Shown in pieces: positions 28,222 through 48,255 of a stretch of DNA of 64,000 nucleotides. The DNA is from a bacterium (GTDB taxonomy: Bacteria > Eisenbacteria > RBG-16-71-46). Position 1 is the stretch's first letter; every line of letters begins with the position of its first letter. The notes beneath the pieces are model-generated. The model made no database searches. It saw only the letters and a program-made list of their open reading frames with translations, and was not told the DNA's origin. The stretch spans positions 8 to 64,007 of the forward strand of contig JAYWEM010000104.1 in the NCBI GenBank assembly GCA_043779265.1, written 5' to 3'. The position numbers and the translations under genes were made by a program.

Positions 28222-28323
28222 GTTCCGCGCGCGACGCATTCGAGCGCTGCGTCGTCGCAGTTCTCGCCAGACCCCGCGAGCGAGCTAATTTGTGCTGGAT
28301 CTGTGCTAGTTCCGCCTCCAGCG

Positions 28324-30211: not shown

Positions 30212-30718
30212 TCACTTGCCTTCCAGTTCAAGCGGCGGCATTGCGAACCGGTTTGCGGTCAGGATTGCCCGAATGCCCGGAATGTCGGCGAGCCCGATTG
30301 CGTTCTGCCGCACGGCCCGAGTGAGCAGGGAAGGCGTCGTGAGCAGGCGCTCGGCGCCCAGCCGCTCAAGCACCAAGCGTCGCACCGGGCCAACCTCGTC
30401 CACAGCCACGCTCCAGCGCCTCGTGAAGGCGACGGCCATCGCGGCCGATTCGCCGTCGCCGAATCGCTTGCGCAGTCTCGCGTACTCGGTCAGTTCCGCC
30501 AGCTCCGTGATCTCGAGCTCGGTGAGGTGCCCGGCTGCCAATGCCGTATCCAGGCGCGCTCGGTGTTCCTGGCGTGCCACCTCCGCGACCACGTGGTTCG
30601 GCACGTGCGCTTCGAAGCCGGTGGCCGCGAAGAGGTCGAGGCGGTCCAGGACCGCCAGGTTCAGCAGAACGCTGGTGTCGGCGACCAGCAGCGCCCGCGT
30701 TTCAGGAACGTGACTCAC
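30212..30718 (-). CDS. PIN-like domain nuclease (putative toxin).
   Basis: It starts MSHVPETRALLVADTSVLLNL with a GTG start. A conserved acidic residue follows the hydrophobic strand. It is 168 aa. Its start overlaps the upstream ImmA gene by 17 nt. Confidence 0.55.
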   Translation of the reverse strand: MSHVPETRALLVADTSVLLNLAVLDRLDLFAATGFEAHVPNHVVAEVARQEHRARLDTALAAGHLTELEITELAELTEYARLRKRFGDGESAAMAVAFTRRWSVAVDEVGPVRRLVLERLGAERLLTTPSLLTRAVRQNAIGLADIPGIRAILTANRFAMPPLELEGK

Positions 30719-31997: not shown

Positions 31998-32200
31998 GGT
32001 TGGATCCTCCTGGGGGCTTGTGTCGGCACTTACTCTACTTGAATAAAGTTCTTCCTTGCAAGTAAGCAACCGAACGGTAGGATGCCAGTGGTCCTTTGGA
32101 GGTTCAAAGCAGATAAGTCGTTGTTGGACAGTCATATGATTGGGTTCTTGTGGGCCGCCAAGGGTCCACCGCGCGCAATGAAGAGGGGAGGGGGGAGTCG

Positions 32201-32650
32201 ATGCCGAGACGAAACGCACATCTTGCCATCGCGGCGGTCTGTGGTGGCGTGGCCGCCTACTTCGTTGCCACGGAGGCCGGATCGTCTGATCCCTTCCCGG
32301 AGATCTTGGGCGGCATCCTAGGCGCGCTCGCCACCGCGATGGTGCCCGACGCCATCGACCCCGCCACGTCGCCGTCGCACCGCGGGAGCGGCCACAGCGT
32401 CGCCTTCGCGGGGCTCGTCTCCTTGGCGATTCAGCCCTGCCGCCGGTTTGCGGCCAGATGCCGGAATGACGCCGAGACATTCCGCAGCCTCGCTGCACAG
32501 GCGGAGGCCCGGCCAGGCGAACAGGCCGACCATCAGTTCAGCGAGCTGGCTTCGAGGTTTGCGGCCGGCGTCGCCGTCGGCCTGCCGGTTGGGCTGTTGT
32601 CGCACCTTGGCGCCGACGCAACCACGCCGCGCGGCCTGACGCTCGTCTAA
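32201..32650 (+). CDS. DUF457-like membrane-bound metal-dependent hydrolase (YdjM-like).
   Basis: It starts MPRRNAHLAIAAVCGG. It has hydrophobic segments and an SHRGSGHS motif. An RBS, GGGAGGGGGGAG, lies upstream. Confidence 0.45.
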   Translation: MPRRNAHLAIAAVCGGVAAYFVATEAGSSDPFPEILGGILGALATAMVPDAIDPATSPSHRGSGHSVAFAGLVSLAIQPCRRFAARCRNDAETFRSLAAQAEARPGEQADHQFSELASRFAAGVAVGLPVGLLSHLGADATTPRGLTLV

Positions 32651-33420
32651 GACGTCGGCGCGCCGCGGCCCACGCGCGGGGTGGGATCGGCGAGCATGCC
32701 CTGGAGCCTGCGGCCGTTCGCGCTGAGCCACTGCTTCGCGCGTTCGGTCTCGGGGCACAGGCTCTGGACGGTCAGCCAGAACTTCGCGGAGTGGTCCGGC
32801 ACCGCCAGGTGGACGGCCTCGTGTACCACGAGGTACCGGAGCACGTGCTCGGGAGCGAGGATGAGGCGCCAGTTGAACGAGAGGTTCCGGCTGGCCGAGC
32901 AGTTGCCCCATTTGGTCCGCTGGCCCATTACGTAGACGCGCTGCGCCCGCTGCCTGAGGCGCGCCGTGACCACGGCGAGCTGGCTCTCGATCTCTGCACG
33001 AGCTTGCCTCCGCAGCCAGTTCTCCAGGCTCCGGGCTGTGGGGGTCTGCGAGCCAGAGCCCCGACGAACGACGATCTCGCCAGCCACAAACCGCACCGCG
33101 TTGCCGCGTGCCTGCGTTGACGCGGTCTCAATCCGCACGCGTGTGGGCTCTCCGCGGAACAGGATCTCGCTCCGGCTACGCTTCTGGGGCCGGCGCACAA
33201 CGCGGAGCCTCTCGATGCGGGCCATCTGGTCGAGGACCCACGTCCGGTGCTGTTCCAGGAAGGCGAAGACCTCAGGTACCGTGCGTGACTGCGGCTGCAC
33301 GACTTCGACGCCGTCGAGCCCGACGCGGACGCGCAGCTTCTTCGCGCTTTTGGACCGCACCAGGCGGAAGTCCAGCCGGCGCCTCCCCAGCCGAATCGTG
33401 TGCTTCGTCGCGGTCCGCAT
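32647..33420 (-). CDS. M48-family zinc metallopeptidase, YgjP/DUF45-like, the kind associated with type I R-M systems.
   Basis: It has the YLVVHEAVHLAVPDHS HExxH motif and is 257 aa. It lies immediately downstream of hsdR. Confidence 0.7.
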   Translation of the reverse strand: MRTATKHTIRLGRRRLDFRLVRSKSAKKLRVRVGLDGVEVVQPQSRTVPEVFAFLEQHRTWVLDQMARIERLRVVRRPQKRSRSEILFRGEPTRVRIETASTQARGNAVRFVAGEIVVRRGSGSQTPTARSLENWLRRQARAEIESQLAVVTARLRQRAQRVYVMGQRTKWGNCSASRNLSFNWRLILAPEHVLRYLVVHEAVHLAVPDHSAKFWLTVQSLCPETERAKQWLSANGRRLQGMLADPTPRVGRGAPTS

Positions 33421-33424
33421 GGCC

Positions 33425-36400
33425 TCAGCTCATCCCGTCAGACTTGGCGAGCTCGGCCACTGCCGGCTTCAGGAACGGCGGGTCTGCAGCGTCTGCGTCG
33501 AAGCCCAGACCTGCATAGGCAGGATTCCACGACTCGGCGAGCAGGGACTGCTCCACGCGCATCCGACCGCCGATAGACACGCTCCAGCCCGGCGCCAACA
33601 GCTTGTTCCCGCGGAGGTGCGCGACCATGCGTCGCGCGCACTCCGCGGCGTAGGCTTCGTCGGCCGCGCTGGCATGCGCCCGCAGGATCGTGAACAGCCC
33701 GTACTCGCCCGGTTCCGTGAGGTTCAGGCGCTCGGGCTCCTGCTTAGTCGCAGCGGCCGCGGCCGCGATCGCCTCGAGCTCGCGAAGTCGCAGAGCAATG
33801 GCCTCATCACCCGCGTCCCGGCGCTCCTTGAGTGCCTGCAGCCGCTCGCCCAGCTGGTGGTAGATGAAGCTCGGATCATCTTCGGACAACTCAACGGTGA
33901 GGAGCGCCTCCAGGGCAGCGGCCTTGTCCGCGGGCGTGGGGAGTTCGTCGAGCTTGCCCACGTAGTCCTTGTCGATCTTGAAGACCGGCAGGGCTTCGGC
34001 GATGTCGAGGAAGGCCGTGTTCTCCTGGATCAGTTGGCGGGTCTTCGCGGACAACTCGCCGTATGTGTCCTTGCTCCCTCGTTGCCGGCGGCGGTGAGCG
34101 ACGTAGATGCCGCACAGCCAGTTGTACTGGAAACGGTGAGGGTAGAGGCAGGGGTCGGGGGCCACGGCTTCCCAGAGCCGTTCCAGGCTGCGGAAGTTGT
34201 GCTCGAAACTCTTGGCGGCCTGTGCATCGCGCAGGCGGCGCAGCGCAGAGAGCAGGCACTCCCGCGTGTCCTCGATCTCGATGCCGTCGAACAGCGCCAT
34301 GCACCGTGCCACCTCGCCCGGCACCGTCGCTCGAAGCGCGTCCCAGTCGATCAGGGATTCCTCGCGCACGCTCTCGTCGAAGTTGAGCGCCTTCTCAAGG
34401 CTGGCAAAGACCCCGAAGTAGTCCACGACGAGGCCAGTCCGCTTGTTCATGGAGGGCAGGGGGCGGTTCGTCCGCGCGATCGCCTGGAGCAGGTTGTGGT
34501 CGCGGAGCGGCTTGTCCAGGTACAGGACCTGTTCGACGGGCGCGTCGAAACCGGTCAGCAGTCGGTCGCAGACGATCAGGATCTTGAGCGGCGGGCGCCA
34601 TCGGCTGCGGTCTTCGCCAAAGCGTTCTCGATTCCAGGTCTCCCACTCGGCCGGCGTGAGCTTGAAGTAGTCGATCAACTCGTCTTGCTTAGCCTTGGCG
34701 TACTCGAAGGCCTCAACCGCGGGTTCGCTGTTCTGTGCCCCGGAGATGATGACGTCGGACCACTCAGCGGGGAGGCCGCGCCCGCGAAGCTTGAGGTCGA
34801 GTGCCGTCTTGTAGAGAGCGCATGCCTTGCGGTCGACGGCGACCAGCTGCGCCTTGAAGCCGTTCGGATCTGGATGCGCTAGAAAGTGGTTCAGCATCCG
34901 CCCCAGCACGATTTCCACGCGCTCGGGGTGGCGGGCCAGTTCCTTCCACTGCGCGCGCTGACGCTGGACGAAGTCCTTGGCTTCCTCGTCCTCGAGTTCC
35001 ATCTCCTCGCACATCTGTTCGAACCCAGTGCTGAGGGCTGCCTCGTCGACCTTGAACGGTACGGCGTCGCGGATGTAGTGAACCTCGAGGGTGGCGCCAT
35101 CCCGGATCGCGCGCCGAATGCCGTAGTAGCTGAGATAGCGCTCCTGGACGCCGTCCCTCAGGGGGCCGAAGTCGCGGTGCGTGTTCTGCATCGTCCGGTC
35201 AATCGGAGTGCCGGTGAAGCCGAAGCGAAACGCGTTCGCGAGCTTGACGCGCATCGTCATCGCGTAGCTCTCAGTGCCGTCGCCCTTCTGGGAGCGGTGG
35301 CACTCGTCGACCATGCTGATGATGTTGTCGCGCGCCAGGGGGGCGAGGTCGCCCATTCCCTGGAACGACTGCACGGTTGTCACGAGAGTCCCTCGCCAAT
35401 CGGCGCGGAGCTTCCGCTTCAGGTCGTCGACTCCAAGCGCCTTCTCGACGTTCGGGTAGTCGCAGGCGTCGAAGTCGTCGGAGAGCTGGGTCTTGAGATC
35501 GCGCCGATCGACCACGATGAGGACCGTGGGGTTATCGAGGGCCGGGTGGCGGCGCAGCTTCTGGCCGGCGAAGATCATGGTGAGCGACTTGCCGGAGCCC
35601 TGCGTGTGCCAGATCAATCCGGTGCGCTCTTGGGAGTCGGCCGGCTTGCCGGCGAGGGTCACGGTGCGATCCACCAGCTCGTTCACCGCTTCGAACTGCT
35701 GGTAGCGCGCGATCTTCTTCGCCGTCTTGCCCTTCTTGGTTTCGAAGACGACGAAGTGCTGCAGGAAGTCCAGCAGGTGCGCCGGCTTCAATCGCAGCAA
35801 GCCGCGAACCGGTGCCTCCAGCGGGTCGTCCGGGTCGGCGGCCTCGGGTTCATTCCAGTAGCCATGGCGATCCGGGTACAGGCTCAGCCAGCGGCCCCAC
35901 GAGTCGAGGTGGCGCTCAATGTCGTCCTTGCTGGCGTCGTGGAAGAGCACGGTGCCGAAGCGGAACTCCTCCTCGTCGGCTGCGACGCAGAACACATTCG
36001 AGGCCAGGATGAGCGGAGCTTGGCGCTGGTAGCGGTGCAGCTGGTGCACAGCCTCGCGCCAGTCCTTGCGGCTCGTGTTGTAGCTCTTGTACTCGGCCAC
36101 AACGAGCGGGATGCCATTCACGAGGAGGACAGTGTCCTCGCGGCACTGCCTCACGCCCTGAACGCGGTACTGGTTCGTTGCGGTGAAGTCGTTCCGGCCC
36201 GGCTTGCTCGGGTCGAACTCGATGAAGAACACCGTCGTCGCGTCCGCGCCCGGCTCCAGTACGACCTTGGCGCCGTCCCGAAGCAGGTCAAGTGTCTGGC
36301 GGTTCGCCGTGAGCTTGTCAGGGTGGGACATCGTCGTGCGAAGCGCTGCGACGGCGAGCCTTGCCTGCACCTCGTCCTTCACCTGCGGATTGATGCGAAG

Positions 36401-36574
36401 GACCGCCGCAACCAGCAGCCGTTCCACCAACGGATTTTCGAGAGGTCGCTCGAACGCAGCCATCGCGTCCTCGCCACGAAAGGTCCACCCCAGGTTGCCA
36501 GCGCCGTACTTCTCCTTCGGCTCACCGCAAAGCCAGCCCAGGATGGGCTGCTCGACATAGCCGTGCTCGCTCAT
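33425..36574 (-). CDS. hsdR: Type I restriction enzyme R subunit.
   Basis: It is 1049 aa. The N-terminal region is a nuclease domain. It has SF2 helicase motifs (GSGKS, DECHRSQ, TGTPI). HsdR-type domains run to the C-terminus. Its start overlaps the hsdS stop. Confidence 0.85.
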   Translation of the reverse strand: MSEHGYVEQPILGWLCGEPKEKYGAGNLGWTFRGEDAMAAFERPLENPLVERLLVAAVLRINPQVKDEVQARLAVAALRTTMSHPDKLTANRQTLDLLRDGAKVVLEPGADATTVFFIEFDPSKPGRNDFTATNQYRVQGVRQCREDTVLLVNGIPLVVAEYKSYNTSRKDWREAVHQLHRYQRQAPLILASNVFCVAADEEEFRFGTVLFHDASKDDIERHLDSWGRWLSLYPDRHGYWNEPEAADPDDPLEAPVRGLLRLKPAHLLDFLQHFVVFETKKGKTAKKIARYQQFEAVNELVDRTVTLAGKPADSQERTGLIWHTQGSGKSLTMIFAGQKLRRHPALDNPTVLIVVDRRDLKTQLSDDFDACDYPNVEKALGVDDLKRKLRADWRGTLVTTVQSFQGMGDLAPLARDNIISMVDECHRSQKGDGTESYAMTMRVKLANAFRFGFTGTPIDRTMQNTHRDFGPLRDGVQERYLSYYGIRRAIRDGATLEVHYIRDAVPFKVDEAALSTGFEQMCEEMELEDEEAKDFVQRQRAQWKELARHPERVEIVLGRMLNHFLAHPDPNGFKAQLVAVDRKACALYKTALDLKLRGRGLPAEWSDVIISGAQNSEPAVEAFEYAKAKQDELIDYFKLTPAEWETWNRERFGEDRSRWRPPLKILIVCDRLLTGFDAPVEQVLYLDKPLRDHNLLQAIARTNRPLPSMNKRTGLVVDYFGVFASLEKALNFDESVREESLIDWDALRATVPGEVARCMALFDGIEIEDTRECLLSALRRLRDAQAAKSFEHNFRSLERLWEAVAPDPCLYPHRFQYNWLCGIYVAHRRRQRGSKDTYGELSAKTRQLIQENTAFLDIAEALPVFKIDKDYVGKLDELPTPADKAAALEALLTVELSEDDPSFIYHQLGERLQALKERRDAGDEAIALRLRELEAIAAAAAATKQEPERLNLTEPGEYGLFTILRAHASAADEAYAAECARRMVAHLRGNKLLAPGWSVSIGGRMRVEQSLLAESWNPAYAGLGFDADAADPPFLKPAVAELAKSDGMS

Positions 36575-37896
36575 GGCAAATTCTCCATGATTACACTTGG
36601 CACACGGACTACGCCGGTGAGGAGGTCGTGCGCGAGGGCACGTTTGAGGTGCTGCAGTGCGCGGCGGACTTCGGACAATGCATCGAGTTGTGCTTCCACT
36701 CCGGCAATACGTGAGACAAGCGCGTCTTGCTCGCTATCGGGAGGCACAGGAATGACGGTCTGATTTACGTCGCGACCATTGATCTTGAGCGTTCCGTTTG
36801 AGGTTTTCGCACGGCGAAGGACCTGGTTGTGCACCAGCGCATGATTCCATGCAAGCACAGCGAAGGCCGCGCTCACCCTTGGACTTCCTTCGGCGCGGAA
36901 TGAGACTCGCATCGTAATGTCGGGGTAGATGCAATCTTCCGGGAATTGGTCGACCATTCCCGCCTTTCCGACCAGGTCGGGATTGGCGTTTCCTCTCACC
37001 ACAAGAACGTCACCGCGGCGAATGCGGTAGCGCTCAATAACTTTCTCGGCCACGCGTACGTACTTGAGGTGCTCGCTTCGATCGAGGGCAACCCGGCCTT
37101 CACGAATTGCAGCAAGGCTGAATGTCGGTGTGCCTGGTGGTTGGGTTGACGACTCGGGGGAAACGCCGTTCTTTGGGTCCTCCGCAAGTAGGTGTTGCGT
37201 CTCAACCAGCGCCCAGCCCGCGGGCAGGGCCTTGCTCGGCCGATTGGCGTACGCGGTTTCGCCAAGTGCCTCGTAGAAGAATCCCTGCAGAATAGCGTTC
37301 TTCAGGGCCTTCGCCGCTTCAATAGCGGCGTCATTTCGGTCGAGCGCTTTGTCGGCGGCATTGAGGATGCCGGCAACAGCGTGCTGCTCGTCAGGGGACG
37401 CAGGGATGGCACACCACACCGTACGAATGTCTCGCTTGCTGACCTCCTCAAATGTGGTCCCTGCGCCGAAGCGTTTGATAATGGGAGTGAGCACGTCGAG
37501 GAGATAGTACAGATAGTCGGCGTCTACCGAGTGAGGAACAAGACTTGCGAAGCCCTGATTCGTGGCCATTGGGATTGCCGCGACGGCCTTTGCCCCGATG
37601 GTTGCCCGGCTCGTGTAGAGAATCGAGCCTGCCGGCAGCAGCTCTGCCGACGACGAGCTGAGACCAGCTTCCGTAATGCACTCGGCAGTGTTGGAAATCC
37701 GCTTTGCTCCGTTCGCAGTCAGGTCGGTCGGCGTGGCCCAAGGGATCGTTCCGCGGTCCCAGAATCGGTGCTCGTCCCGGCTTGGAGTTCCGCCCCCAAC
37801 AACTCGTGCGAGCTCACCCAGAGTGTGCGCGTCCCAGCCGGAGGGAAGCCCGAAGCGCCGCAGGAAGTCGTGTCGAGCGCCAGCGCTAACCCGCAT
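36571..37896 (-). CDS. hsdS: Type I restriction-modification specificity subunit.
   Basis: It is 441 aa with two target-recognition domains separated by conserved coiled-coil regions. It overlaps both hsdM and hsdR. Confidence 0.8.
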   Translation of the reverse strand: MRVSAGARHDFLRRFGLPSGWDAHTLGELARVVGGGTPSRDEHRFWDRGTIPWATPTDLTANGAKRISNTAECITEAGLSSSSAELLPAGSILYTSRATIGAKAVAAIPMATNQGFASLVPHSVDADYLYYLLDVLTPIIKRFGAGTTFEEVSKRDIRTVWCAIPASPDEQHAVAGILNAADKALDRNDAAIEAAKALKNAILQGFFYEALGETAYANRPSKALPAGWALVETQHLLAEDPKNGVSPESSTQPPGTPTFSLAAIREGRVALDRSEHLKYVRVAEKVIERYRIRRGDVLVVRGNANPDLVGKAGMVDQFPEDCIYPDITMRVSFRAEGSPRVSAAFAVLAWNHALVHNQVLRRAKTSNGTLKINGRDVNQTVIPVPPDSEQDALVSRIAGVEAQLDALSEVRRALQHLKRALAHDLLTGVVRVPSVIMENLP

Positions 37897-39922
37897 AGCC
37901 GATATCCTTCAGTAGGTCATTGAGCGCTGTCGTGGCCGCATGTGCCGTTATCTCCGCATCCCGCAGCGCAATCAGCGCGTCCTTGACCTCCACCCGCGGC
38001 TCAGGCTCAAACGTGTCCACGTAGCGCGGGATGTTGAGGTTGAACTCGTTCTCCTCGATCTCGTCGAGGCCCACGACGCGGGCGTGCTTGAACAGTTCGT
38101 CGGGATTGGCGTAGAGCGCCCGCAGCTCGTCACCTACCACCGCCACGTCCTTGCGATCGTCATCAGCACGGCGCCGCGCTTGGGCGATGCGCTCCTCGCG
38201 CTGGGCCACCTTCGCGGCTAGCTTCTCGCGGTGCTTTTCCAGCTTCGCGGTCGACGCAGCCATCTTCGCCTTCTCCTGTTTCGTCCCGGCCACCGACTCC
38301 TTCTGGCGCGCCTGGACCAGCTCGGCGTCCAGCGTCGCGAGCATGTTCGACTGCGGCTGATACTCCGCTTCGATCCGCCCAGTCTCCTCCGCCTCACGCA
38401 CGTCAATCTGCCGGCGGATGCGACCGCCGTGCTCGTCCACGAGAGCTGACAGCTTGGCCACGTCTCCGTATGCATGGATGTGAACGAGAATGCGCATTAC
38501 ATCCTGCGGGCGGAGCTCATTCTGCGCCGATAGCTCTCGGAAGTGGCGTGCCGCGTAGATGAGGAGCACCTTGTCGCGGCGATCCGCCGGGCGCTGCTTG
38601 CTCAAGATTAGCAAGCAGGCGGGCACGCCCGCGCCGTAGAACACGTTGAGCGGCAGCGAGATCACGGCGTCGATCAGGTGCGACTCGAGCAGCGCCTTGC
38701 GGATAAGGTGCTCGTCGTCCGCCTTGCGTCGCTTGACCTTCGGTTTGCTGTCGTCGTCAAGCTCCTCGGTTTCCTCCTCAACTTCCGGCTGCCCGCGGAA
38801 GAGCACGCCCTGCGGGCACACGATGCCGGCGCGCCCGGCATCGGTGAGCGAGGCGAGGATGTGCAGGATGAACGCGTAGTCGCCGTAGCCGGCCGGTGGC
38901 GCTTGGAAGCCGGTGCCACGGCCGAAACGGCCGAAGGGGTCTTTGAAGCCCTCCTTGCCGAAGGTCTCCTTCTTAAGCTTGTCCTTCTTCTTCTTGTCGT
39001 CGGTCTGCTGCTCCGGCTTCAACCACCAGAACTCGTCCGAGAAGGGGAAGTTCGCGAGCACCAAGGAGAACTTACGGACCTTGCCGTCGTCGAGGAACTG
39101 CGGGTCCGTGATTGTGCTGGCGCCCGCCTTGATCTCAGCTTCCAGGCCATGAAGGACCGAGTTGATCTTTCCGATGGCCGCGTTGCCCCAGTTCATTTCC
39201 TGGGCGGAGTAGCGGGCGCTGGTGGCGTGGTGGCCGTGCTCCCGCAGGTAGTCGGCCGCGTGCACGAGCATGCCACCGGAGCCCGCGGTGGGGTCGTAGA
39301 CGGTGTCGCCAGGCCGCGGCTCCAGGATGCGCACGAGCGTGTCGACGACCTCGGGTGGTGTGAAGAACTCGCCAGCCTTGGCGCCGGCGTCATCCGCGAA
39401 CTTCTTGATCAGGTACTCGTACGCCCGGCCCAGCACGTCCGAGGGAACGCTGCTGTTCGAGAGGTCGTGTTCGTCGAAGTGCTGGATCAGCGCGTGGACG
39501 ACTTCATTGGGAATGAGCGGCTTGCCCGAGCCGTCAGGAGCGGGCTGGTTCCAATCGACCGTGAAGACGCCCCGAAGCTCCTCGTTCGCGTCCGCTACCG
39601 CGCGCATCGCCTTCGTCAGCGTCTCGCCGATGTTCGTCGAGGCGGCCTTCACATCGCCCCAGCGGGATCCGTCGGGGATCTGGAAGCGGTGCTCGCCGCG
39701 CTTCCGGAATACGGCCTTCTCCTTGTCGCTGAACTTGCGGCCCTGCTGGCGCTCGAGCTCGGCAATGGCGTCGTCGGCTTCGCATTCCCACTGGTCGCAC
39801 AGGCGCTTGTAGAACATCAGAGACAGGATGTAGTTCTTGTAGTCCTGTCCCGCGGTCTTGCCCCGCAGGATGTTTGCCGCACCCCAGAGATGGGCTTCAA
39901 GCTGCTGGAGAGTGAGCTTCAT
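37886..39922 (-). CDS. hsdM: Type I R-M N6-adenine DNA methyltransferase subunit with an extended coiled-coil C-terminus.
   Basis: It has the N-terminal HsdM_N (LWGAANILRG), the SAM-binding motif I (TVYDPTAGSGGML) and NPPF in a form diverged to NFPF. At 678 aa it is about 150 aa longer than is typical. Confidence 0.8.
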   Translation of the reverse strand: MKLTLQQLEAHLWGAANILRGKTAGQDYKNYILSLMFYKRLCDQWECEADDAIAELERQQGRKFSDKEKAVFRKRGEHRFQIPDGSRWGDVKAASTNIGETLTKAMRAVADANEELRGVFTVDWNQPAPDGSGKPLIPNEVVHALIQHFDEHDLSNSSVPSDVLGRAYEYLIKKFADDAGAKAGEFFTPPEVVDTLVRILEPRPGDTVYDPTAGSGGMLVHAADYLREHGHHATSARYSAQEMNWGNAAIGKINSVLHGLEAEIKAGASTITDPQFLDDGKVRKFSLVLANFPFSDEFWWLKPEQQTDDKKKKDKLKKETFGKEGFKDPFGRFGRGTGFQAPPAGYGDYAFILHILASLTDAGRAGIVCPQGVLFRGQPEVEEETEELDDDSKPKVKRRKADDEHLIRKALLESHLIDAVISLPLNVFYGAGVPACLLILSKQRPADRRDKVLLIYAARHFRELSAQNELRPQDVMRILVHIHAYGDVAKLSALVDEHGGRIRRQIDVREAEETGRIEAEYQPQSNMLATLDAELVQARQKESVAGTKQEKAKMAASTAKLEKHREKLAAKVAQREERIAQARRRADDDRKDVAVVGDELRALYANPDELFKHARVVGLDEIEENEFNLNIPRYVDTFEPEPRVEVKDALIALRDAEITAHAATTALNDLLKDIGYAG

Positions 39923-40314
39923 GGCGGTCCGTGCCTTCCGTGGGCAGCATGTGAAGCGCCTGCCCCGGTGGACATCGCGCCAGCGTCGTACGGCCGGCCA
40001 AGCGAGCCAACGGGCCTAACAAGCGCCAGAGAACCCGCTGACCCTATCGGGATAGGGCTCCCTGCTCAAGTAATCCGGCCGCCGGGTTGACGCGCGATTC
40101 GGAAACGCTTCCATTCACCGGGCGTCGGCCCGCGTCCAGCAGGCCCGTGGACTTCTGAGCGCCCAAGATGCCCAAGCGCCGAAGGTGGACCCGAATGACG
40201 AAGACCCTAAGGTGAGCCGATCGCCTCTTCTTCGCCCGACGGATCGCTCAGCCGAGAAACATCTGGCAGGAGGATCTGGTCGACGCGAGCAGATTTGCCT
40301 CGCTTTGCAGCGAT

Positions 40315-41859
40315 ATGGGAATGCGCTGCAGCTCCGATGACGTGCTTCAAGTCTGGGCTGCTGGACTCTTGCGAGCTGATCTCGTCCACTGCGCGGCCCC
40401 TCTCCGTCGGCATGGCCTTGTCCGTGTCCAGGTCTTGCCGGATCGAACCGCGCTGTACGCGGATCTGCGACGCGCCCGCTCTCGGCCGCGCGGGTGGCTC
40501 AACGCCCTGAAGCGCGGCCTGGGAGTTGGCGGCTCTGCCCCGGAGCCACTCTTCCACCCATTTCGTTGTTTGGTGCTCGCCAATCTATGGCGGCAGTTCG
40601 AGGCTGGCTTCCATCCGCTTCAGTTCCTGATTAACGCGCGCGGTGCTCGCAGGGTCTTGGAACTGCACCGAGGGTCGATACAGGCGATCACGTCAAAGGT
40701 GGAGTTCCTCGAGGGAATCGAGCGGCTATCCGGCATCGTCGACATGGCGGTGGCCATCGAGCCCTTCGCGCTCCCAGCAATTCGGGGCTCTGTGAGGCTG
40801 TCAGTCGGCAGTCTTCAAACCCACGAGCGGCAGGTTCAGACCTATTGGCGCGCGGCAAGGCGTCGGCTTAGCTCCGTGGGACTGGACTCGATGGAGGCTA
40901 TGCGAAGGGAGTTGTGCATTCAGTCAGAGCTTGTCGACCGAAACCGGGCGCTCCAGACCGTGCTTCGACTAATGTCCGACTCACATCGACAACGCCTCCG
41001 AGGTGGCCTCGTCGGCGCAATGTTGTTGCGGTCTATGGCTGAGGTGCTCCGCCGCGGCGCTGAGAGCATCTTCGCTGCCCCGCTGCCAGAGGAGGATGAG
41101 ATCGGATTCGGGCGGTACTTCCCTGGGACGAAGGAGAGGCTCTACGGATCCGAGCGCCTTCTCGATGGTGACAGGGCAGTAGCGGAGCAGTTCCTTCGCG
41201 CGCATGGCCTGGACTACGGCGTGCGAGTGCGTTGGTACGTGGAAGGCGATACTGAGTTTGGGGCGTTGTCGAGCGCATTGGAGCGCGTTCATGCAATCGA
41301 CCTCGTGAATCTGCGAGGAGCCGTCGTCGAGAAGGGGGGCAAGTCGGTGGCCTTCCGCGACAGCCTCCGCGCGGACAAACGCACCCGCACGTTCAGCATG
41401 GTGTCCGTCGACGCCGACCGGCAGGACGTCGTGCGTTTGGTGAATCAGGCCGATCGGAACGGCGAGATTTGCGGCAATGTCTTCTTCCAGCAGCCTGATT
41501 TCGAGTTTGCCAACTTCACGCTGGATGAGTTGCAGGAGGCTCTGTTGATTATGGCGCGGAAGACCGGCGTCCCGCCGGCCGGATGCAGGAAGATTCGCCC
41601 ACTGACGCGAGACACGAAGTCTGCTGGCGAGCTTTGGCGCGCGCTACACAAAAAGCTGGGCGCACCGGCAGGCTTCAGCAAGGGCGCGGAGTGGGGAAGG
41701 GTATTGATTGAGCTGGCCTACGAGCGACCGAGTGCCCCTCCGCCGATTGTTTTATCCGACGGGCGGCGACCGATGCTCGAAGCGATCAACATCGCGCTGA
41801 GGAGTGTGATCTCGGACTACGAGCTTACGCGCGCGGCTGCCCTCGCGGTGCGTCGATGA
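40315..41859 (+). CDS. Hypothetical protein of 514 aa. Its C-terminal half has a TOPRIM/DUF4435-like motif (WYVEGDTEF). It is a candidate partner of the downstream SIR2-like gene.
   Basis: A long ORF with no Walker A motif. The start codon is uncertain. It is followed after 65 nt by the SIR2_2 gene on the same strand. Confidence 0.45.
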   Translation: MGMRCSSDDVLQVWAAGLLRADLVHCAAPLRRHGLVRVQVLPDRTALYADLRRARSRPRGWLNALKRGLGVGGSAPEPLFHPFRCLVLANLWRQFEAGFHPLQFLINARGARRVLELHRGSIQAITSKVEFLEGIERLSGIVDMAVAIEPFALPAIRGSVRLSVGSLQTHERQVQTYWRAARRRLSSVGLDSMEAMRRELCIQSELVDRNRALQTVLRLMSDSHRQRLRGGLVGAMLLRSMAEVLRRGAESIFAAPLPEEDEIGFGRYFPGTKERLYGSERLLDGDRAVAEQFLRAHGLDYGVRVRWYVEGDTEFGALSSALERVHAIDLVNLRGAVVEKGGKSVAFRDSLRADKRTRTFSMVSVDADRQDVVRLVNQADRNGEICGNVFFQQPDFEFANFTLDELQEALLIMARKTGVPPAGCRKIRPLTRDTKSAGELWRALHKKLGAPAGFSKGAEWGRVLIELAYERPSAPPPIVLSDGRRPMLEAINIALRSVISDYELTRAAALAVRR

Positions 41860-41924
41860 GGTGATCTGCGGGCACGCGTGCCCTCGGATGCGGGCGGAGT
41901 TACTCGCTTCGAAAGGGATTCATC

Positions 41925-43109
41925 ATGAGCGCAATCTTCATTCTGGGCTCGGGCGCGTCGAAGGCTGCCAACTCTCCGTCGGTGTGGGAGATCACGCGAG
42001 CCGTTCGTGAAGGTGTCGCAGTACACCTCCATACTGATGGAAGGCACTACCTAGCAAATCCGCCGCGCCCTTCTCTCGAGCATGCCGAGGTGGAGGTACA
42101 GCGAGCCGTCGCGGTGGTGCGCTGCGTCCTTCCGCTCATCCGTTTGCAGATGCGAAGCACCCCAAACTACGAAGAGGTCTACTTCCTGTTGCGGCAAGTC
42201 GCGGACCACCTGCTCTGGGACTTTGAGAATCCTGCGCTGCAGCCTTTGATCTACGAGATGGCTCGTCGCTGGGAAGAGTCCGCATGGCAGAAGAATCTCG
42301 CGGGCGACCCCGTCAGTCTCAGGGAAGCCCTCCTTCAGGCGTGTGACTACATCCATGATGTGACGTGGCGGCTGCTCGAACCCGTGTGCGCGTTCGGGCA
42401 CATGCTGAACTGGGCCTCGGCTGTCGGCGAACTCGGGGGTGATTGCGACGCTGTCGTAACCCTGAACCATGATGAACTCGCGCGGCGCGCTCTCGCGGAG
42501 TGCAGCATCGACTTCGAGGACGGCTTCGAGCCGCCGGGCGCCATCAGGCCATGGCGACCTGCCCGCCTCGACCGAAGTGGTCCGGTGAAGCTGATCCACC
42601 TTCATGGGGCTCTGAGCTGGTTCTGGTATGTGAGGGACGGGGATAGCGGGAGTCGGCAGTATCTGCTCCGGGTCGCGGGGGGCGACATCGATCACGTGCT
42701 CCATCCCTCGGGCGAGGCGATGATTCTCGCGGCCAACAGGCCTTGCCTGTCGATCGGAACTCACAACAAGGTGACCGCCTACTTCAGGCAGCCGTTCAAC
42801 GAACTCTACGGCCAGATGACTCGGCTCCTCCGGGAGGAGGGTGCGGTGACGCGGATCGTCCTTGCGGGGTACGGAGGCGCCGACAAGGGAGTCAACCTCC
42901 AGGTTTCCGACTGGATGCAGACCGGCGACGCTCGCGAAATCGTCCTCGTGCATCCAAACCCGACCAGCTGGCTCGCAAGTGCTCGGCCGCACCTGGCCAC
43001 CCAGTGGCCGATCTGGACAGCGGCAGGCCGGATCAAGACCATTTCCAAACCGTTCGAAGCCGTGACCCGCGAGGAGTGGATTGCGGCCGCTCGCGGCGCA
43101 AGTGCGTAG
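41925..43109 (+). CDS. SIR2_2-family protein (Thoeris ThsA-like NAD-binding or NADase domain).
   Basis: It starts MSAIFILGSGASKAA with the Rossmann GAGxS motif. VVTLNHDEL corresponds to the TTNYD motif. KLIHLHGALSW is the LHGS motif. Confidence 0.65.
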   Translation: MSAIFILGSGASKAANSPSVWEITRAVREGVAVHLHTDGRHYLANPPRPSLEHAEVEVQRAVAVVRCVLPLIRLQMRSTPNYEEVYFLLRQVADHLLWDFENPALQPLIYEMARRWEESAWQKNLAGDPVSLREALLQACDYIHDVTWRLLEPVCAFGHMLNWASAVGELGGDCDAVVTLNHDELARRALAECSIDFEDGFEPPGAIRPWRPARLDRSGPVKLIHLHGALSWFWYVRDGDSGSRQYLLRVAGGDIDHVLHPSGEAMILAANRPCLSIGTHNKVTAYFRQPFNELYGQMTRLLREEGAVTRIVLAGYGGADKGVNLQVSDWMQTGDAREIVLVHPNPTSWLASARPHLATQWPIWTAAGRIKTISKPFEAVTREEWIAAARGASA

Positions 43110-43166
43110 AAGGGGAGGCTTGTGGGCGTTTAGCTATGCGCTCGAGGCTGTCGTCGAGGAGGGCCG

Positions 43167-43766
43167 ATGGACCGGACAGTCATCAACCTGACGTCACTGT
43201 TATTGGGCGGCGCAGGGATCTTCGCGGTTCTTACGGAGTACAGCGTGAGAGAGCTCCGAAAGACCTACTGGGGGGAGAACCCCTTCGCGATCAAGGCGGA
43301 GGTGATCAAGGGGCTGACGACCTCCTTGTTCGTCGCGCTGGCAGTTGTGGCAACGCTTCTTCAGGCGATGGCCGAAATCGTTGGCGATCGACTCCCGGAG
43401 CGCAGGCACGGGCTGCCCGCATATGTGCTGTTCTTCCTTGTCGGTGTGGCCCTGGACGTCGGGATCGTTCGCGGGCTTGCCTGGCTCGGTCGGAAACTCG
43501 CACGACGGCGATGGTGGCCAGAGGTGATCAAGTCCCAGAGCGCTGCGTTCGTCGCAGCACGCGCGATCGTGCTCAACGATGGCTGGCGCGATGACCAGCT
43601 CGAGCTCAAAGACAAGCTCGATGACCAGCAGAAATACCGGGAGGCCAACTGGGAAGCCGCCGAGCGCTCAATCGCGCAGATCGAACGCCTATTGGAGCTC
43701 CCGCCACGCGGAGAACACGCCAAGGCCCGCCTGGCCCGACTGGCAGTGTACTTCGCCAGCGCTTGA
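43167..43766 (+). CDS. Small two-TM membrane protein with a C-terminal coiled coil. Possible membrane effector of the SIR2 module.
   Basis: It has two hydrophobic helices (LLLGGAGIFAVL and AYVLFFLVGVALDVGIV). GGAGGG lies upstream. Confidence 0.5.
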   Translation: MDRTVINLTSLLLGGAGIFAVLTEYSVRELRKTYWGENPFAIKAEVIKGLTTSLFVALAVVATLLQAMAEIVGDRLPERRHGLPAYVLFFLVGVALDVGIVRGLAWLGRKLARRRWWPEVIKSQSAAFVAARAIVLNDGWRDDQLELKDKLDDQQKYREANWEAAERSIAQIERLLELPPRGEHAKARLARLAVYFASA

Positions 43767-44000
43767 GGGCAGCGTGCCCGGTGCAGCGCCAGTGGCAGCG
43801 CCTACTCGCCTAGCCAGCACCCCGCTTCGTCACCGTTATCGGAGCGCATCGCCGAACCTCGCTGTGTCAGAACTGTGCTACAACGCTCGAACCACCACCG
43901 AGACTATCGGTCCTCATCGGTTCGCTAGTCGTCGCGTTCAGGCGCATTTGACGCGGGGTTCGGCGGTGTTGAGCCCTCTCCTGAATTGCCGGGTCTCGCA

Positions 44001-44030
44001 TTCAACTTCCAGTGGGCGTGGTCGAGCGGG
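44001..44030 (+). repeat. Right copy of the 30-bp direct repeat; the displaced original 3' end of the oxidoreductase gene.
   Basis: It is identical to 28132-28161. It continues in frame as FNFQWAWSSGTVAGRAVALK followed by a stop. Confidence 0.7.
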
Positions 44031-44223
44031 ACGGTTGCGGGGAGGGCGGTGGCCTTGAAGTAGCTTGCTGTAGTTGCCTGTTGCACAGTGTCTTACGGGA
44101 ATTCTGGGTGTCGCTCATCAGGGGTCAGGTCAGCCCCAAGGAGCGAATCCACGAGCTCCCGTCCCCACCGCCAGCCCCAAAAATGTCCTTGCCAAAAGGA
44201 CAACTGCGTCCGATATTGTCCCT

Positions 44224-45552
44224 ATGAAAATGACAATATCCCACGACATCCTTCGGCTGAAGCTCGCCGAGTCCCTGGCAGCGGACCCGCTCGTCGCCCT
44301 CACGAGGCGTGACGTAGTCCTGCCTGGCATCCCGGGCAAGGCGTTCGCGGTGATCGGCGTGCGCCGGGGGGGCAAGACCTCATTCTTGGCGCAGTGTCGG
44401 GCCGAGCGGATCGCTGGCGGCCGCTCCCGTGAGGCACAGCTCCTGATTTCACTCGAGGATGAACGGTTGTCTGGCCTATCGGTCGCGGACCTCGGCTGGT
44501 TGCTCGATGAGCACCTGCGCCAGTTCCCGGGGCTACGCGAATCGGGCGGGATGACGCTGTACTTGGACGAGGTCCAGACGGTCCCGGGCTGGGAGGGACT
44601 CGTCCGCCGCCTGATGGATAGGGGCGTCGTCGAGCTGTTCGTCTCGGGCTCCTCGGCCAAGCTGCTCTCGCGCGAGGTGGCGACCAGCCTGCGCGGCCGA
44701 GCCATGGAGGTACTCGTTCACCCTTTCAGCTTTCGCGAGGTGCTGCGTCATGCCGGGGCCGAGCCGCAGGAGCCCGCCCTGCGCCTTCGCCCCGCTGCCC
44801 GCGCGGCGCTGGATCAGCAGCTTCGCCGCTACCTCGCCGAGGGTGGCTTTCCAGAAGCGCAAGGAGCCACGCCCCGGGATCGGGCCGCGCTGCTGGGTGG
44901 ATACGTGGACGTGGTGGTGCTGCGCGACGTGATCGAGCGTCACGCGGTCAGCAATCCGCTGGCGCTGCGCTGGATCGAGCGGCAGCTTCTGGCCAATCCC
45001 GGCGGGTCATTCTCGGTGAAAAAGCACCACGACACCCTGCGCTCGCAGGGCGTGTCGGTAGGCAAGGACACATTGCACGACTACCTGGCCCACCTCGAGG
45101 ATGCATTCCTCGTGCGCACGGTGGCCATGCACAGCGCTTCGGAGCGCCAGCGCATGGTGAACCCGCGCAAGGCCTATCCCGTGGACCCGGGGTTGATCGC
45201 GCTCTTCGAGCGCAGTGGTCGCGCACACCACGGCCGCGCACTTGAAACCGTGATCCTGCTGGAACTCGAACGCCGCGGCTTCGAGGTCGCTTACGTGCGT
45301 ACGCCCGAGGGCTACGAGGTAGACTTCATTGCTCATCGCGCCGGGGACGCGCCGCTCCTGATCCAAGCGTGCTTGGAGAGTGAAGGCGACGAGACTTGGG
45401 AGCGAGAGCTGCGGGCGCTGGTCGCAGCCGCGTCGGCTTATCCCGCCGCCCGCCCCTTCCTGGTGACGCTCGACGCGGTCCCACCCAGCCGGCCCATGCC
45501 CAAGGGGTTCACCTGGGCGCCCGCCGCCCACTGGCTGCTGGAGGAGATGTGA
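44224..45552 (+). CDS. AAA-family ATPase with a DUF4143 C-terminal domain.
   Basis: It has a Walker A, GVRRGGKTS, and a Walker B, LYLDEVQ. The overall architecture matches AAA_14 plus DUF4143. Confidence 0.65.
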   Translation: MKMTISHDILRLKLAESLAADPLVALTRRDVVLPGIPGKAFAVIGVRRGGKTSFLAQCRAERIAGGRSREAQLLISLEDERLSGLSVADLGWLLDEHLRQFPGLRESGGMTLYLDEVQTVPGWEGLVRRLMDRGVVELFVSGSSAKLLSREVATSLRGRAMEVLVHPFSFREVLRHAGAEPQEPALRLRPAARAALDQQLRRYLAEGGFPEAQGATPRDRAALLGGYVDVVVLRDVIERHAVSNPLALRWIERQLLANPGGSFSVKKHHDTLRSQGVSVGKDTLHDYLAHLEDAFLVRTVAMHSASERQRMVNPRKAYPVDPGLIALFERSGRAHHGRALETVILLELERRGFEVAYVRTPEGYEVDFIAHRAGDAPLLIQACLESEGDETWERELRALVAAASAYPAARPFLVTLDAVPPSRPMPKGFTWAPAAHWLLEEM

Positions 45553-45735: not shown

Positions 45736-46926
45736 TCACTCGCCCTGATTGGCGCCGGCCGCGCCATCACGCAGGTGATCTCCAAGCTTTCCGAAGTGTT
45801 CGAACTTCAGGTCGAGGAACCTGGACGCGTCGACCGACGTGATGCGATTGGCGGCCAGCGCCTCGAGCACAAGTGTCGCGAAGGGGCGTCCCGCTCGATT
45901 CACCGCCTTCTCCACCGGCGTCGCAAATCCGCCTCGACGCGGCCGAAGCGTACCAACGTACTCATCCCACTTCTGTCGCCAGGCGTTGTACTTGGGCCAG
46001 GTCATGAATCCCGATTCCCGCAGCCTCGTGGCCATCGCGAGTGGAGTGATCCGGAACCGCCGTGCCAGTGACCGCACTTCCGGGAGGTCCCACGGCCTAT
46101 CGACTGCGCGCGAAGGCAGGGCATCCCGAAGCGCAGACTCCGGAACCAGTGCGTGACTTGCCGCACTCTCGGCGAATCGCTCGACCTCGGCCCATTCCCT
46201 CGCCGGCCGGCGCTCGCGGATGGCCGGCAACTCCTCCTTGCCGGCTGCGAGCATCACATGGACCAATTCATGGAACAGGGTGAACGCGCGAGCCTCGGGC
46301 ATTTCCTTGCTGTTGATCGCCACGACGGGGAGGGGGTCGCGCAGGATCGCGAGGCCGCGCACCTCTGCCAAGCTCACGCCAGGATAAAGGAAGACGAAAG
46401 CGCCCATCTCCTCGACCGCAGTGCGCCATGCGGCCCATGCGCGCCATTCGTTCGGCCACGCCAACTGAGTTGCGAGGCCGACGCCGGTGGCGTCGCGGAG
46501 ACGCGCCCCGACATCGGCTGCAGGCTCACGCAAGTGGGCTCGGAGCGCGAACGGCGCAACCTTCTCGCCCAGTTCCTCCATGAGATTCAGCGCATTCTCA
46601 CGGCGCGAGAGTACCTGGCGCAGGGCGATTCGCAGCTCAGGGGACTCTTGCCCGGGAGTAACACCCGAAAGCCTGCGGTACTCGGCACCCAGCGGCAGGA
46701 GTTGCGGGGGACGAGCTTGGAAGAAGACGCCCAGGGGGCGGCGGAGGAACTTGGCAAGTTCCTCGATCTGCCGTTCAGTCGGTTGGCGCTCGCCCATCTC
46801 CCAAGCCCGGACTCGTTCTTCCTTCACACCGAGCCGGCTCGCGACCCGGACAGTGGGGTAGCCACTCTCCTCGCGGGCCCACCGCAGGATCTCGGGGTTC
46901 ACTGGCATTGCAGGGTTGGGAGACAT
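45736..46926 (-). CDS. XRE HTH fused to an ImmA/IrrE-family metallopeptidase (second copy of this architecture in the window).
   Basis: The N-terminal HTH is VRVASRLGVKEERVRAWEMG. The HExxH motif is FTLFHELVHVML. The C-terminal region is typical of ImmA. Confidence 0.65.
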   Translation of the reverse strand: MSPNPAMPVNPEILRWAREESGYPTVRVASRLGVKEERVRAWEMGERQPTERQIEELAKFLRRPLGVFFQARPPQLLPLGAEYRRLSGVTPGQESPELRIALRQVLSRRENALNLMEELGEKVAPFALRAHLREPAADVGARLRDATGVGLATQLAWPNEWRAWAAWRTAVEEMGAFVFLYPGVSLAEVRGLAILRDPLPVVAINSKEMPEARAFTLFHELVHVMLAAGKEELPAIRERRPAREWAEVERFAESAASHALVPESALRDALPSRAVDRPWDLPEVRSLARRFRITPLAMATRLRESGFMTWPKYNAWRQKWDEYVGTLRPRRGGFATPVEKAVNRAGRPFATLVLEALAANRITSVDASRFLDLKFEHFGKLGDHLRDGAAGANQGE

Positions 46927-47070: not shown

Positions 47071-48255
47071 ATGCTCATCGTTCGCTGCACCGCCAAGCTG
47101 CTTGGCAAGCTCAAGGTCCAACCCGAGCCGGCGTTTTCGCCGCCGGCCACGACGCGCCTGGGCGACTGGTACGCCACGATTCTGCCCATGCGCACCTCGC
47201 ACGTCGTGCTCCTGGTCAGCGAATCCACGCGGCTGCCGGTTGTGCTTCCGGCACGCGAGCTCTCGACGCTTGCCCGGCGGATCCCCGACGCGATCGGCCG
47301 GGTGCTCCGGGAACTCGGCGTCGATTCGGGTGTCATCGGCGAAGAGCTGGAAGCGATGGCCGAGCTCGCTTTCGATCGGACCGCCAGCCGTAGCGTGCTG
47401 GGTACGATGAACGAGTTCGTGCTTCATCTGGGGCCGATGCGCGATGCGGAGCCCACCATGACGGAGCACGCGATGAGCATGAAGCTGGGCAGGGTCCTGG
47501 TGACGATTCCCTCGCATGGCTACCAGCATCCGGCCGAGTTCACGGCGCAGAGCCTTCGGTCCACTACGGCTCGCCCGCGACCGCTTGGCACGACAACTCA
47601 GAAGGAATCATCGATGAAGAGCGCCTCCAGCATCTACGAGCTGAAGATCACCCTCCGTGACTCCCGCCCGCCCATCTGGCGGCGCCTGCGGGTGCGTAGC
47701 GATGTCACCCTGTTCAAACTCCACGGCATCCTTCAGTACGTCATGGGTTGGATGGACGGCCACATGCACCAGTTCGTGGCGAAGGGCACGGTGTATGGCA
47801 GGGTCGATCCCGAGTTTCCGGAGGGCGAGAACGAGAAGAAGGTGTCGCTCGGCCAGGTGCTCCGCAAACCCAAGGACAGCCTCGTCTATGAGTACGACTT
47901 CGGCGACGGGTGGGAGCACACCGTCGTGCTGGAGCAGGTGCTCGAAGCCGCGCCGGGCGGCAAGTACCCCTATGTCGTCGACGGCAAGCGGGCTTGCCCT
48001 CCGGAGGATTGCGGCGGCACGGGGGGCTACAGTCGCCTGCTCCATGTGCTGGCCGACACCAAGCACCCCGAGCACGGTGACATGGTCGAGTGGGTAGGTG
48101 GCTCGTTCGATCCCGCAGCCTTCGACGTGGGCGAGATCAACCGTGGGTTCCACGGCGGCTGGTACCTGCCGCCGGCGGCCGATGCACCGCGCAGCAAGAC
48201 GGCGCTTCCACGCCAGACCACGCTCAAGTTGGGGGCGCCGCGCCGTCGTCGGTGA
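47071..48255 (+). CDS. Plasmid pRiA4b ORF-3-like family protein (PF07929-like C-terminal domain) with an N-terminal domain of unknown function.
   Basis: The C-terminal part reads IYELKITLRDSRPPIWRRLRV...YEYDFGDGWEHTVVLE...CPPEDCGGTGGY. Confidence 0.6.
   Translation: MLIVRCTAKLLGKLKVQPEPAFSPPATTRLGDWYATILPMRTSHVVLLVSESTRLPVVLPARELSTLARRIPDAIGRVLRELGVDSGVIGEELEAMAELAFDRTASRSVLGTMNEFVLHLGPMRDAEPTMTEHAMSMKLGRVLVTIPSHGYQHPAEFTAQSLRSTTARPRPLGTTTQKESSMKSASSIYELKITLRDSRPPIWRRLRVRSDVTLFKLHGILQYVMGWMDGHMHQFVAKGTVYGRVDPEFPEGENEKKVSLGQVLRKPKDSLVYEYDFGDGWEHTVVLEQVLEAAPGGKYPYVVDGKRACPPEDCGGTGGYSRLLHVLADTKHPEHGDMVEWVGGSFDPAAFDVGEINRGFHGGWYLPPAADAPRSKTALPRQTTLKLGAPRRRR

Follow-up and report, generated by a model that had tools for sequence, protein, structure and literature searches.

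A 64,000-nucleotide stretch of DNA from a bacterium of the Eisenbacteria (lineage RBG-16-71-46; GenBank assembly GCA_043779265.1, contig JAYWEM010000104.1, positions 8 to 64,007 of the forward strand), hereafter referred to as the window, carries three consecutive genes that are the subject of this analysis: a gene for a putative nuclease (A), a gene for a SIR2_2-family protein (B) and a gene for a small membrane protein (C). All three are present as plus-strand open reading frames (ORFs) where a first-pass annotation of the same DNA had placed them, with a gap of 65 bp between A and B and of 57 bp between B and C, and since homologues align along the whole length of each they are taken to be real genes. 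That annotation had proposed the three as a new SIR2-based anti-phage system. The domain readings of A, B and C on which the proposal was built have stood up to profile and structure searches, whereas the recurrent unit has not: the trio was not found in other genomes, and exists only on the window's own contig.

Protein families of the three genes

The SIR2_2 hallmarks first noticed by eye in gene B (IFILGSGAS, TLNHDE and HLHG) correspond to conserved SIR2 motifs. Against Pfam SIR2_2 (PF13289), the protein of the window reaches 21.9 bits, a little below the 24.5 cutoff, and it matches the PADLOC SIR2 models at E~1e-6; all 84 aligned members of its family match SIR2_2 at E<=0.01, and all 84 match both the PADLOC SIR2 and the Aga_SIR2 models. 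An exhaustive HMMER search returned 1081 representatives of the family (50% clusters), almost all of them ~390 amino acids (aa) long and matching end to end. The SIR2 catalytic residues, whose absence would have spoken against the assignment, are present on alignment, with G8/G10/S12, D183, H227/G228 and a GYxxxD motif invariant and N181 kept in 82 of the 84 sequences. Furthermore, the family profile matches 8w9l_A, the Paenibacillus SIR2 protein of SIR2-HerA, at E=6e-21, and N181, D183 and H227 align with N163, D165 and H212, that protein's presumed catalytic residues. Judged by its sequence, B is a bona fide defence-type SIR2 protein with its active-site residues intact. Pfam and PADLOC scans of the window detected no HerA, TIR, SLOG, APAZ or prokaryotic Argonaute (pAgo) in B or its neighbours, and no B homologue was found in the plasmid, phage and IMG/VR collections.

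For gene A, Pfam gave only a sub-threshold match to OLD-like_TOPRIM (E=0.066), lying right over the WYVEGDTEF motif; scans with NCBIfam and PADLOC returned no match (PADLOC none even at E<=1), a profile search against PDB sequences found nothing, and no known Thoeris, HerA or Argonaute component turned up in the profile searches. Because these searches gave no family assignment, fold searches were needed. The AlphaFold model of a full-length homologue (P0002, 83% identical to A) has a mean predicted local distance difference test score of 89.2 and a predicted template modelling score of 0.77, and its top Foldseek match is the C-terminal region of the Xanthomonas OLD protein (6njw, probability 0.97), an OLD-type fold. 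In Bp OLD, the two-metal set consists of E400, E404, D455, D457, T506/E508 and K562 (PMC6755086). The counterparts in A are E310, E314, D366, D368, D395/E397 and K456, in the same order and with similar spacing, this matching being one of order and spacing and not of superposed coordinates; these putative catalytic residues are kept in 69–70 of the 70 aligned sequences. Together with the Foldseek match, this residue set confirms the TOPRIM-like character that had been suspected from the acidic motif. Invariant across the same alignment are FHPFR, EEDE, WYVEGxTE, DxD, PDFEFANF and KGxxWG. A Walker A motif occurs in one of the 70 family members, which is the level expected by chance, and A itself has none, as had been observed when A was set apart from the HerA, TIR and pAgo proteins.

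The modelled architecture of A comprises a MerR-like winged helix-turn-helix (wHTH) domain, a helical region of ~215 residues and an OLD-type Toprim plus helical nuclease module, all within a single polypeptide. On this model, A is an OLD-type Toprim nuclease module joined to a putative DNA-binding domain, with no ATPase. The family is rare, with 91 homologous clusters in 5.8 billion proteins, all of them unnamed and typically ~560 aa long, and it was encountered in 57 of 185,579 species-representative genomes. One homologue was found in the plasmid collection, one in IMG/VR and none in the phage collection. The plasmid-borne copy (L073; positions 556014-557543 of the 709-kb Ideonella dechloratans plasmid NZ_CP088082.1) adjoins an IS3 transposase gene and has, some kb further upstream, genes for an integrase and a diversity-generating retroelement; the IMG/VR copy (L157) comes from a contig of 61 kb that is predicted to be viral.

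Gene C had been described as a membrane protein with two transmembrane segments and its own ribosome-binding site. The membrane character and the ribosome-binding site hold, the latter as a strong Shine-Dalgarno sequence (GAGGAGGG) located 5 nt ahead of the ATG; the number of segments does not, as three hydrophobic stretches are present (aa 4-22, 44-62 and 82-100). Scans with Pfam, PADLOC and NCBIfam gave no match to C, and its homologues amount to 7 clusters plus the copy in locus L154 described below.

An early stop codon in gene A

The 514-aa ORF was initially taken for the native form of gene A, which it is not. Homologues extend ~40 residues further toward the N-terminus, and in the window the frame 5' of position 40315 is still conserved over these 40 codons, back to an ATG at 40195, broken only by a TGA. 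Translation in frame from this ancestral start reads MTKTLR*ADRLFF, compared with MTKTLKRADRLFF in homologues; the seventh codon is Arg in homologues, and is AGA in the DNA of L061 with which the window was aligned. The same base is found at this codon in the source contig copy (L067), where no more than a C-terminal piece of A, 274 aa long, was annotated by the gene caller. This copy, obtained from ENA and belonging to the same assembly, differs from the window by one A/G mismatch at position 45955, within a helix-turn-helix (HTH)-M78 gene and not at the nonsense codon.

Between the TGA and 40315 there is no in-frame ATG, GTG or TTG, and no Shine-Dalgarno sequence was found at 40315. Recoding, or an alternative start after the TGA, was considered and set aside: the sole Shine-Dalgarno-like sequence, GGAGGA at 40269-40274, is separated by a single base from the CTG that follows, too short a spacing for use. 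At the 3' end of A, around 41830, there is a 21-nt in-frame deletion, by which the C-terminal helix is seven residues shorter than in homologues (VKQAEER there). Any product of A made in the window would be without residues 1-40, including, by the model, the putative HTH's first helix. The nonsense codon has most likely inactivated A or left an N-terminally crippled product, and the function of A has probably been lost here. Because the 5' segment remains ~83% identical in DNA and in frame, the lesion would be recent, unless it reflects an error of assembly. The shortened A variants in L058-L060 (490 and 398 aa), which could be mistaken for recurrent disruption of the gene, are gene-calling artefacts, the DNA being identical to that of the intact L061.

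Table 1. Positions of genes A, B and C, their parts, and the surrounding features of the window.
Feature	Position	Strand	Basis or remark
Gene A, open ORF, 514 aa	40315..41859	+	truncated copy of a ~554-codon wHTH-helical-Toprim putative nuclease gene; homologues ~560 aa
Gene A, ancestral start ATG 40195 and premature in-frame TGA 40213-40215 (codon 7)	40195..40215	+	DNA alignment to L061
Gene A, N-terminal MerR-like winged-helix domain (predicted)	40216..40554	+	part up to 40314 precedes the first usable start
Gene A, OLD-type Toprim and helical nuclease module (predicted), aa ~300-514	41212..41859	+	putative metal/catalytic residues E310, E314, D366, D368, D395, E397, K456
Gene B, 394 aa, SIR2_2, putative NADase	41925..43109	+	Pfam/PADLOC; GSGxS aa 8-12, N181/D183, H227
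Gene C, 199 aa, small membrane protein	43167..43766	+	ORF list; three hydrophobic segments, charged C-terminal half
Conserved non-coding stretch, ~190 nt	43865..44055	.	~90% identical to L075:1100-1290
Type I restriction-modification operon	33425..39922	-	Pfam; directly upstream of A
hsdR	33425-36574	-	Pfam
hsdS	36571-37896	-	Pfam
hsdM	37886-39922	-	Pfam
AAA_14/DUF4143 ATPase gene, weak Mrr_cat-like C-terminus	44074-45552		300 bp past C; island flank
HTH and Peptidase_M78 (IrrE-like) genes, n=2	30702-32498 and 45736-46926		island flanks
DUF6933-PRiA4_ORF3 gene	47071-48255		island flank

Distribution of the three families

The A family was sampled at 57 loci from species-representative genomes, which span Acidobacteriota, Chloroflexota, several proteobacterial classes, Planctomycetota, Armatimonadota, Bacteroidota and others. 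No homologue of B or C lies near A at any of these loci, and no conserved neighbour of A emerged, as none of the neighbouring families was seen at more than four of them. At only 16 of 52 loci does the gene 3' of A read in the same direction and lie within 200 bp, and these 16 genes are a mixture: ResIII helicase, Eco57I/PglX-like methylase, Schlafen, PIN, ThuA, radical SAM, one SIR2_2 and others of no assigned family. The 131 flanking ORFs are in many cases housekeeping genes, with some defence, toxin-antitoxin or mobile genes among them (PglX, restriction enzymes of types I and IIG, PIN, Schlafen, Uma2 and transposases).

The B family was sampled at 80 metagenomic loci, with a locus from the window's own clade (L058) added as a control. 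The outcome is reciprocal to that obtained with A: none of the 80 has an A homologue, the sole match to the A profile being the control itself, and C is found in only one of them (L074, where B is 93% identical to that of the window). It is on these two samples that the proposed three-gene module fails the test of co-occurrence. Nor is there a dominant partner for B, or a HerA-like P-loop gene beside it, at any of the 80 loci, where a Walker A motif was found in no upstream co-directional gene and downstream only in DUF4011 helicases. The most frequent neighbour found was a trypsin-like peptidase, a tetratricopeptide repeat protein or a fusion of the two, all falling into one cluster, which adjoins B at six loci (L084, L110, L113, L125, L143 and L148). 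At three or four others, B lies between an Eco57I-like methyltransferase gene (~1300 aa) and a gene for a 1849-aa DUF4011-AAA_11/AAA_12-MTES_1575 helicase-nuclease; these loci (L076:1-10334, L077:1999-13733 and L085) may represent a recurrent multi-gene defence locus in their own right.

The nearest relatives of the window's B were compared individually. A lies upstream of B in P0092 (B 87% identical; no C called downstream), P0093 (84%; no C downstream) and P0094 (81%; loci L058-L061), the last of which has an unrelated 172-aa gene downstream. In L075 (89%) the upstream side is not covered, and the downstream gene is a homologue of that same 172-aa gene. In L074, B and C (88% identical) are adjacent, and the sequence stops short upstream of B. 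More distantly, P0096 (68%; locus L154) has a C homologue downstream and a superfamily 2 (SF2) helicase gene, not A, upstream; the B-C pair there (L154:1-1002; C at E=2e-78) comes right after the C-terminus of the helicase (Pfam Helicase_C; by eye SNF2-like). P0098 (53%; L066) has neither A nor C. In P0097 (59%), upstream of B are DrmB-like MZB and phospholipase D (PLD) genes, and the contig ends downstream. At this last locus (L062:355-4258, also L063-L065) the B homologue closes an overlapping operon after an MZB/DUF1998 gene (628 aa) and a PLDc_2 gene (263 aa), an arrangement that resembles DISARM DrmB/DrmC with a SIR2 gene appended.

The A-B pairs do not amount to independent observations. 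The FAD-oxidoreductase gene of L058 is orthologous to that at 26866-28221 of the window by tblastx and blastn synteny, so that L058 is the window's own chromosomal locus; it had been a candidate for a second, independent A-B context, and was rejected as such. P0092 and P0093 have their hsdM flank in common with the window. Four A-B instances at one orthologous locus reflect a single evolutionary event, and not independent co-occurrence.

The position after B is itself a variable slot, occupied by C in the window and in L074 and by the unrelated gene (172/186 aa) in L058 and L075; the 172-aa gene of L058 was examined as a possible C homologue and has no similarity to C. Elsewhere, C homologues stand alone, after unrelated genes, or between a purine/cytosine transporter gene and P-II. 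A 395-aa gene upstream of the C homologue in L070 was likewise considered as a relative of B and shows no similarity.

Genomic setting

The claim that the genes lie in a defence island beside a type I restriction-modification system was borne out. Immediately upstream of A are hsdM, hsdS and hsdR, a YgjP-like peptidase gene also lies upstream, and on the 3' side of C Pfam identifies AAA_14/DUF4143 ATPase, HTH-Peptidase_M78 and DUF6933-PRiA4_ORF3 genes. The GC content of the island, ~0.63, is a little under the whole-window mean. These surroundings are those of a typical variable defence island. A block of ~12 kb in the window (28300-40200), comprising a 549-aa gene of no known function, an HTH-Peptidase_M78 gene, the YgjP gene and hsdRSM, is missing from L058 (L058:1962-3350), where it would fall between the FAD-oxidoreductase gene and A; the block marks the site as an insertion hotspot.

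Just past the variable slot, the non-coding stretch 43865-44055 is better conserved against L075 than is the adjacent coding DNA. A structured RNA was considered for this stretch and rejected, as neither an Rfam match nor an unusual folding energy was found on either strand. It could serve the AAA_14 gene as promoter or regulatory DNA, or be a site of recombination delimiting the cargo slot.

Discussion

On balance we lean, if not strongly, toward regarding the region as a variable stretch of a defence island where three genes, each inherited separately, lie head to tail, rather than as a dedicated system. In such a scheme, A would normally be a solitary gene, and one that is probably inactivated in the window; the N-terminal part of its product is expected to bind nucleic acid, and the Toprim module to cut it by two-metal catalysis. 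B would be self-contained, with no HerA partner, and would hydrolyse NAD+ once triggered, leading to abortive infection. C would be cargo that can be swapped for other genes in the slot behind B, though in some lineages it may help B. Nuclease activity of A, NADase activity of B and a role in defence are predicted from folds, from invariant catalytic residues and from the literature on related families.

Several observations do not sit easily with three independently inherited genes. The three genes read in the same direction with little space between them, and a promoter and terminator scan, itself uninformative, showed no terminator-like site on the plus strand, so that they may be co-transcribed. 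Across the relatives that carry both, A and B diverge in the same rank order (83, 78 and 74% for A against 87, 84 and 81% for B), and B and C are still adjacent at 68% B identity in L154, after a different upstream gene. In a Bryobacteraceae metagenome-assembled genome (L038:209-2338), an A homologue 34% identical to that of the window is followed 43 bp on by a gene for a 355-aa SIR2_2 protein of another subfamily. Furthermore, the closest solved SIR2, that of SIR2-HerA, is autoinhibited and needs its partner for activation (PMC11472057), and because of this a truly solitary B would need some other trigger. Last, a part in phage defence is a prediction for the A and B families alike.

It is possible, and we raise it tentatively, that the A family is an undescribed stand-alone immune nuclease of the OLD-type Toprim, two-metal kind in which the MerR-like domain and the helical region bearing FHPFR and EEDE replace the ABC-ATPase sensor of its known OLD, Gabija and PARIS relatives, and which acts as a single gene and has sometimes recruited a SIR2 NADase encoded downstream, as in the window's clade and in L038.

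The remaining explanations retain a functional unit of some kind, or dispense with immunity altogether. One holds that B and C form a two-gene unit of a SIR2 protein and a membrane protein, in which C anchors the NADase, senses for it or is gated by it, A being unrelated. Adjacency of B and C in the window, in L074 and in L154, where the upstream gene is an SF2 helicase and not A, is consistent with such a unit, as is the Shine-Dalgarno sequence that C carries of its own, 57 bp past B; a small ORF with two transmembrane segments also follows B in L096 and L097, although these are probably one sequence copied, with identical ORF sizes and spacing. We nevertheless consider the unit unlikely: C is missing in four B relatives that are 81-89% identical, with the unrelated gene in the slot in L058 and L075, a small ORF with several transmembrane segments lies downstream of B at only 3 of 58 B-family loci, and five C homologues have no adjoining SIR2 gene, one of them being that between the transporter gene and P-II.

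A more doubtful proposition is a clade-specific Toprim-SIR2 system made of A and B, with or without C, in which A would sense foreign DNA and activate B, or would serve as a second effector. The two genes are co-directional, 45-66 bp apart, and have been kept as a pair while A fell to 74% identity and B to 81%; a second and independent adjacency of A with a SIR2_2 gene exists in L038; and SIR2 proteins of the SIR2-HerA type need a partner to relieve autoinhibition. Against this, no SIR2 gene is present at 56 of the 57 A loci (L038 being the one where a SIR2 gene adjoins A), no A at the 80 B-family loci, and the four A-B instances come down to a single orthologous locus. The SIR2 protein of L038 is of a different subfamily, and at sister loci the gene 3' of A encodes PIN (L046, gap 168 bp) or FRG (L022, gap 308 bp), as would be expected of chance neighbours in an island. 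In addition, the nonsense codon in A, with B and C intact, suggests that B is independent of A. We regard as improbable the view that these are non-immune genes, with A serving repair, recombination or the cycle of a mobile element or acting as a toxin, and B a regulatory deacylase or ADP-ribosyltransferase: many neighbours of A are housekeeping genes, A is not in PADLOC, and single copies are known from a plasmid, by IS3, integrase and retroelement genes, and from a viral contig, but the literature ties SIR2_2 proteins and OLD-type Toprim modules overwhelmingly to defence, the rare and patchy spread of A over many phyla (57/185,579) is typical of horizontally moving accessory genes, and the window locus and several others are rich in restriction-modification, BREX-like, Schlafen and PIN genes.

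If three separately inherited genes are indeed what the window holds, there is a lesson for scans of genomes, namely that a plausible defence-island operon can consist of independent cargo genes, and that orthology should be checked before "different contexts" are counted as independent co-occurrence. The B family, with more than 1000 clusters at 50% identity, constitutes a large pool of partner-less SIR2 proteins. The A family would be one more candidate for defence, compact and encoded by a single gene, and, if its predicted architecture is true, would show another way of licensing an OLD-type nuclease, in which the catalytic set is retained in full and a winged-helix DNA-binding domain takes the place of the ATPase.

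Comparison with known systems

The arrangement had been thought to match neither Thoeris, SIR2-HerA, DSR nor SPARSA, and indeed none of the four fits. A SIR2 domain and, presumably, the chemistry of NAD+ depletion are common to B, Thoeris ThsA, DSR1/DSR2 and SPARSA, but B has 394 aa (the family ~390), whereas the DSR proteins, with SIR2 at the N-terminus and a sensor region at the C-terminus, have ~1000. With SPARSA the likeness is limited to the ~50 first profile residues, which match SIR2-APAZ weakly (E~5e-4); B has no APAZ, and no short pAgo lies nearby. In Thoeris, ThsA carries a C-terminal SLOG domain and is accompanied by the TIR-domain protein ThsB, but B is without SLOG, and no TIR partner was found by Pfam and PADLOC in A, B, C or their neighbours.

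The SIR2 protein of SIR2-HerA (8w9l, 8j4u/8su9, 8yhx) is the closest solved relative of the B family. It is of similar size (381-428 aa), and the GxGxS, N-x-D, HG and GY(G/S)FxD motifs are common to both. In SIR2-HerA, the gene for the hexameric ATPase HerA adjoins or overlaps that for SIR2, which forms a dodecamer or tetradecamer activated by HerA. B, in contrast, has no adjacent HerA in the window or at the 80 loci, and the likeness is limited to the catalytic core; the neighbours of the B family are instead varied, and include the trypsin-like peptidase, the DISARM-like DrmB/DrmC-type genes and the giant DUF4011 helicase-nuclease.

Like A, the DUF4435-type AriB of PARIS is a Toprim nuclease polypeptide apart from an ATPase and a candidate effector of abortive infection. 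In PARIS, AriB acts with the adjacent ATP-binding cassette (ABC) ATPase AriA. A differs in having no adjacent ATPase, no PADLOC match and a DNA-binding-like domain of its own; the nearest ATPase gene, AAA_14/DUF4143, which lies 300 bp past C, is not conserved with A.

A is related to the OLD family through a C-terminal Toprim with helical domain and two-metal residues as found in class 2 OLD proteins (6nk8/6njw), GajA of Gabija and Thermus OLD also being close, though the similarity in sequence is marginal (Pfam E=0.066). The family is defined by an N-terminal ABC-type ATPase (PMC7049728, PMC6755086). In place of that ATPase, A has the MerR-like wHTH domain and the ~215-residue helical region. 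Members of particular OLD classes are recognised by their neighbours, a UvrD-like helicase in class 2 (Gabija) and a retron reverse transcriptase in classes 3 and 4. No class-defining neighbour, be it a UvrD-like helicase, a retron or another, accompanies A; none of its neighbours is conserved over the 57 loci, and in the window it lies between hsdM and B. To our knowledge, all characterised OLD-type Toprim defence nucleases (P2 Old, class 1 and 2 OLD, GajA, retron-linked OLD and AriB-AriA) are controlled by an ABC ATPase. What is new is an uncharacterised family in which an OLD-type Toprim module is accompanied by a MerR-like domain, without the ATPase of all its characterised relatives, and, alongside it, a large SIR2 family that does without HerA yet is related to the SIR2 protein of SIR2-HerA.

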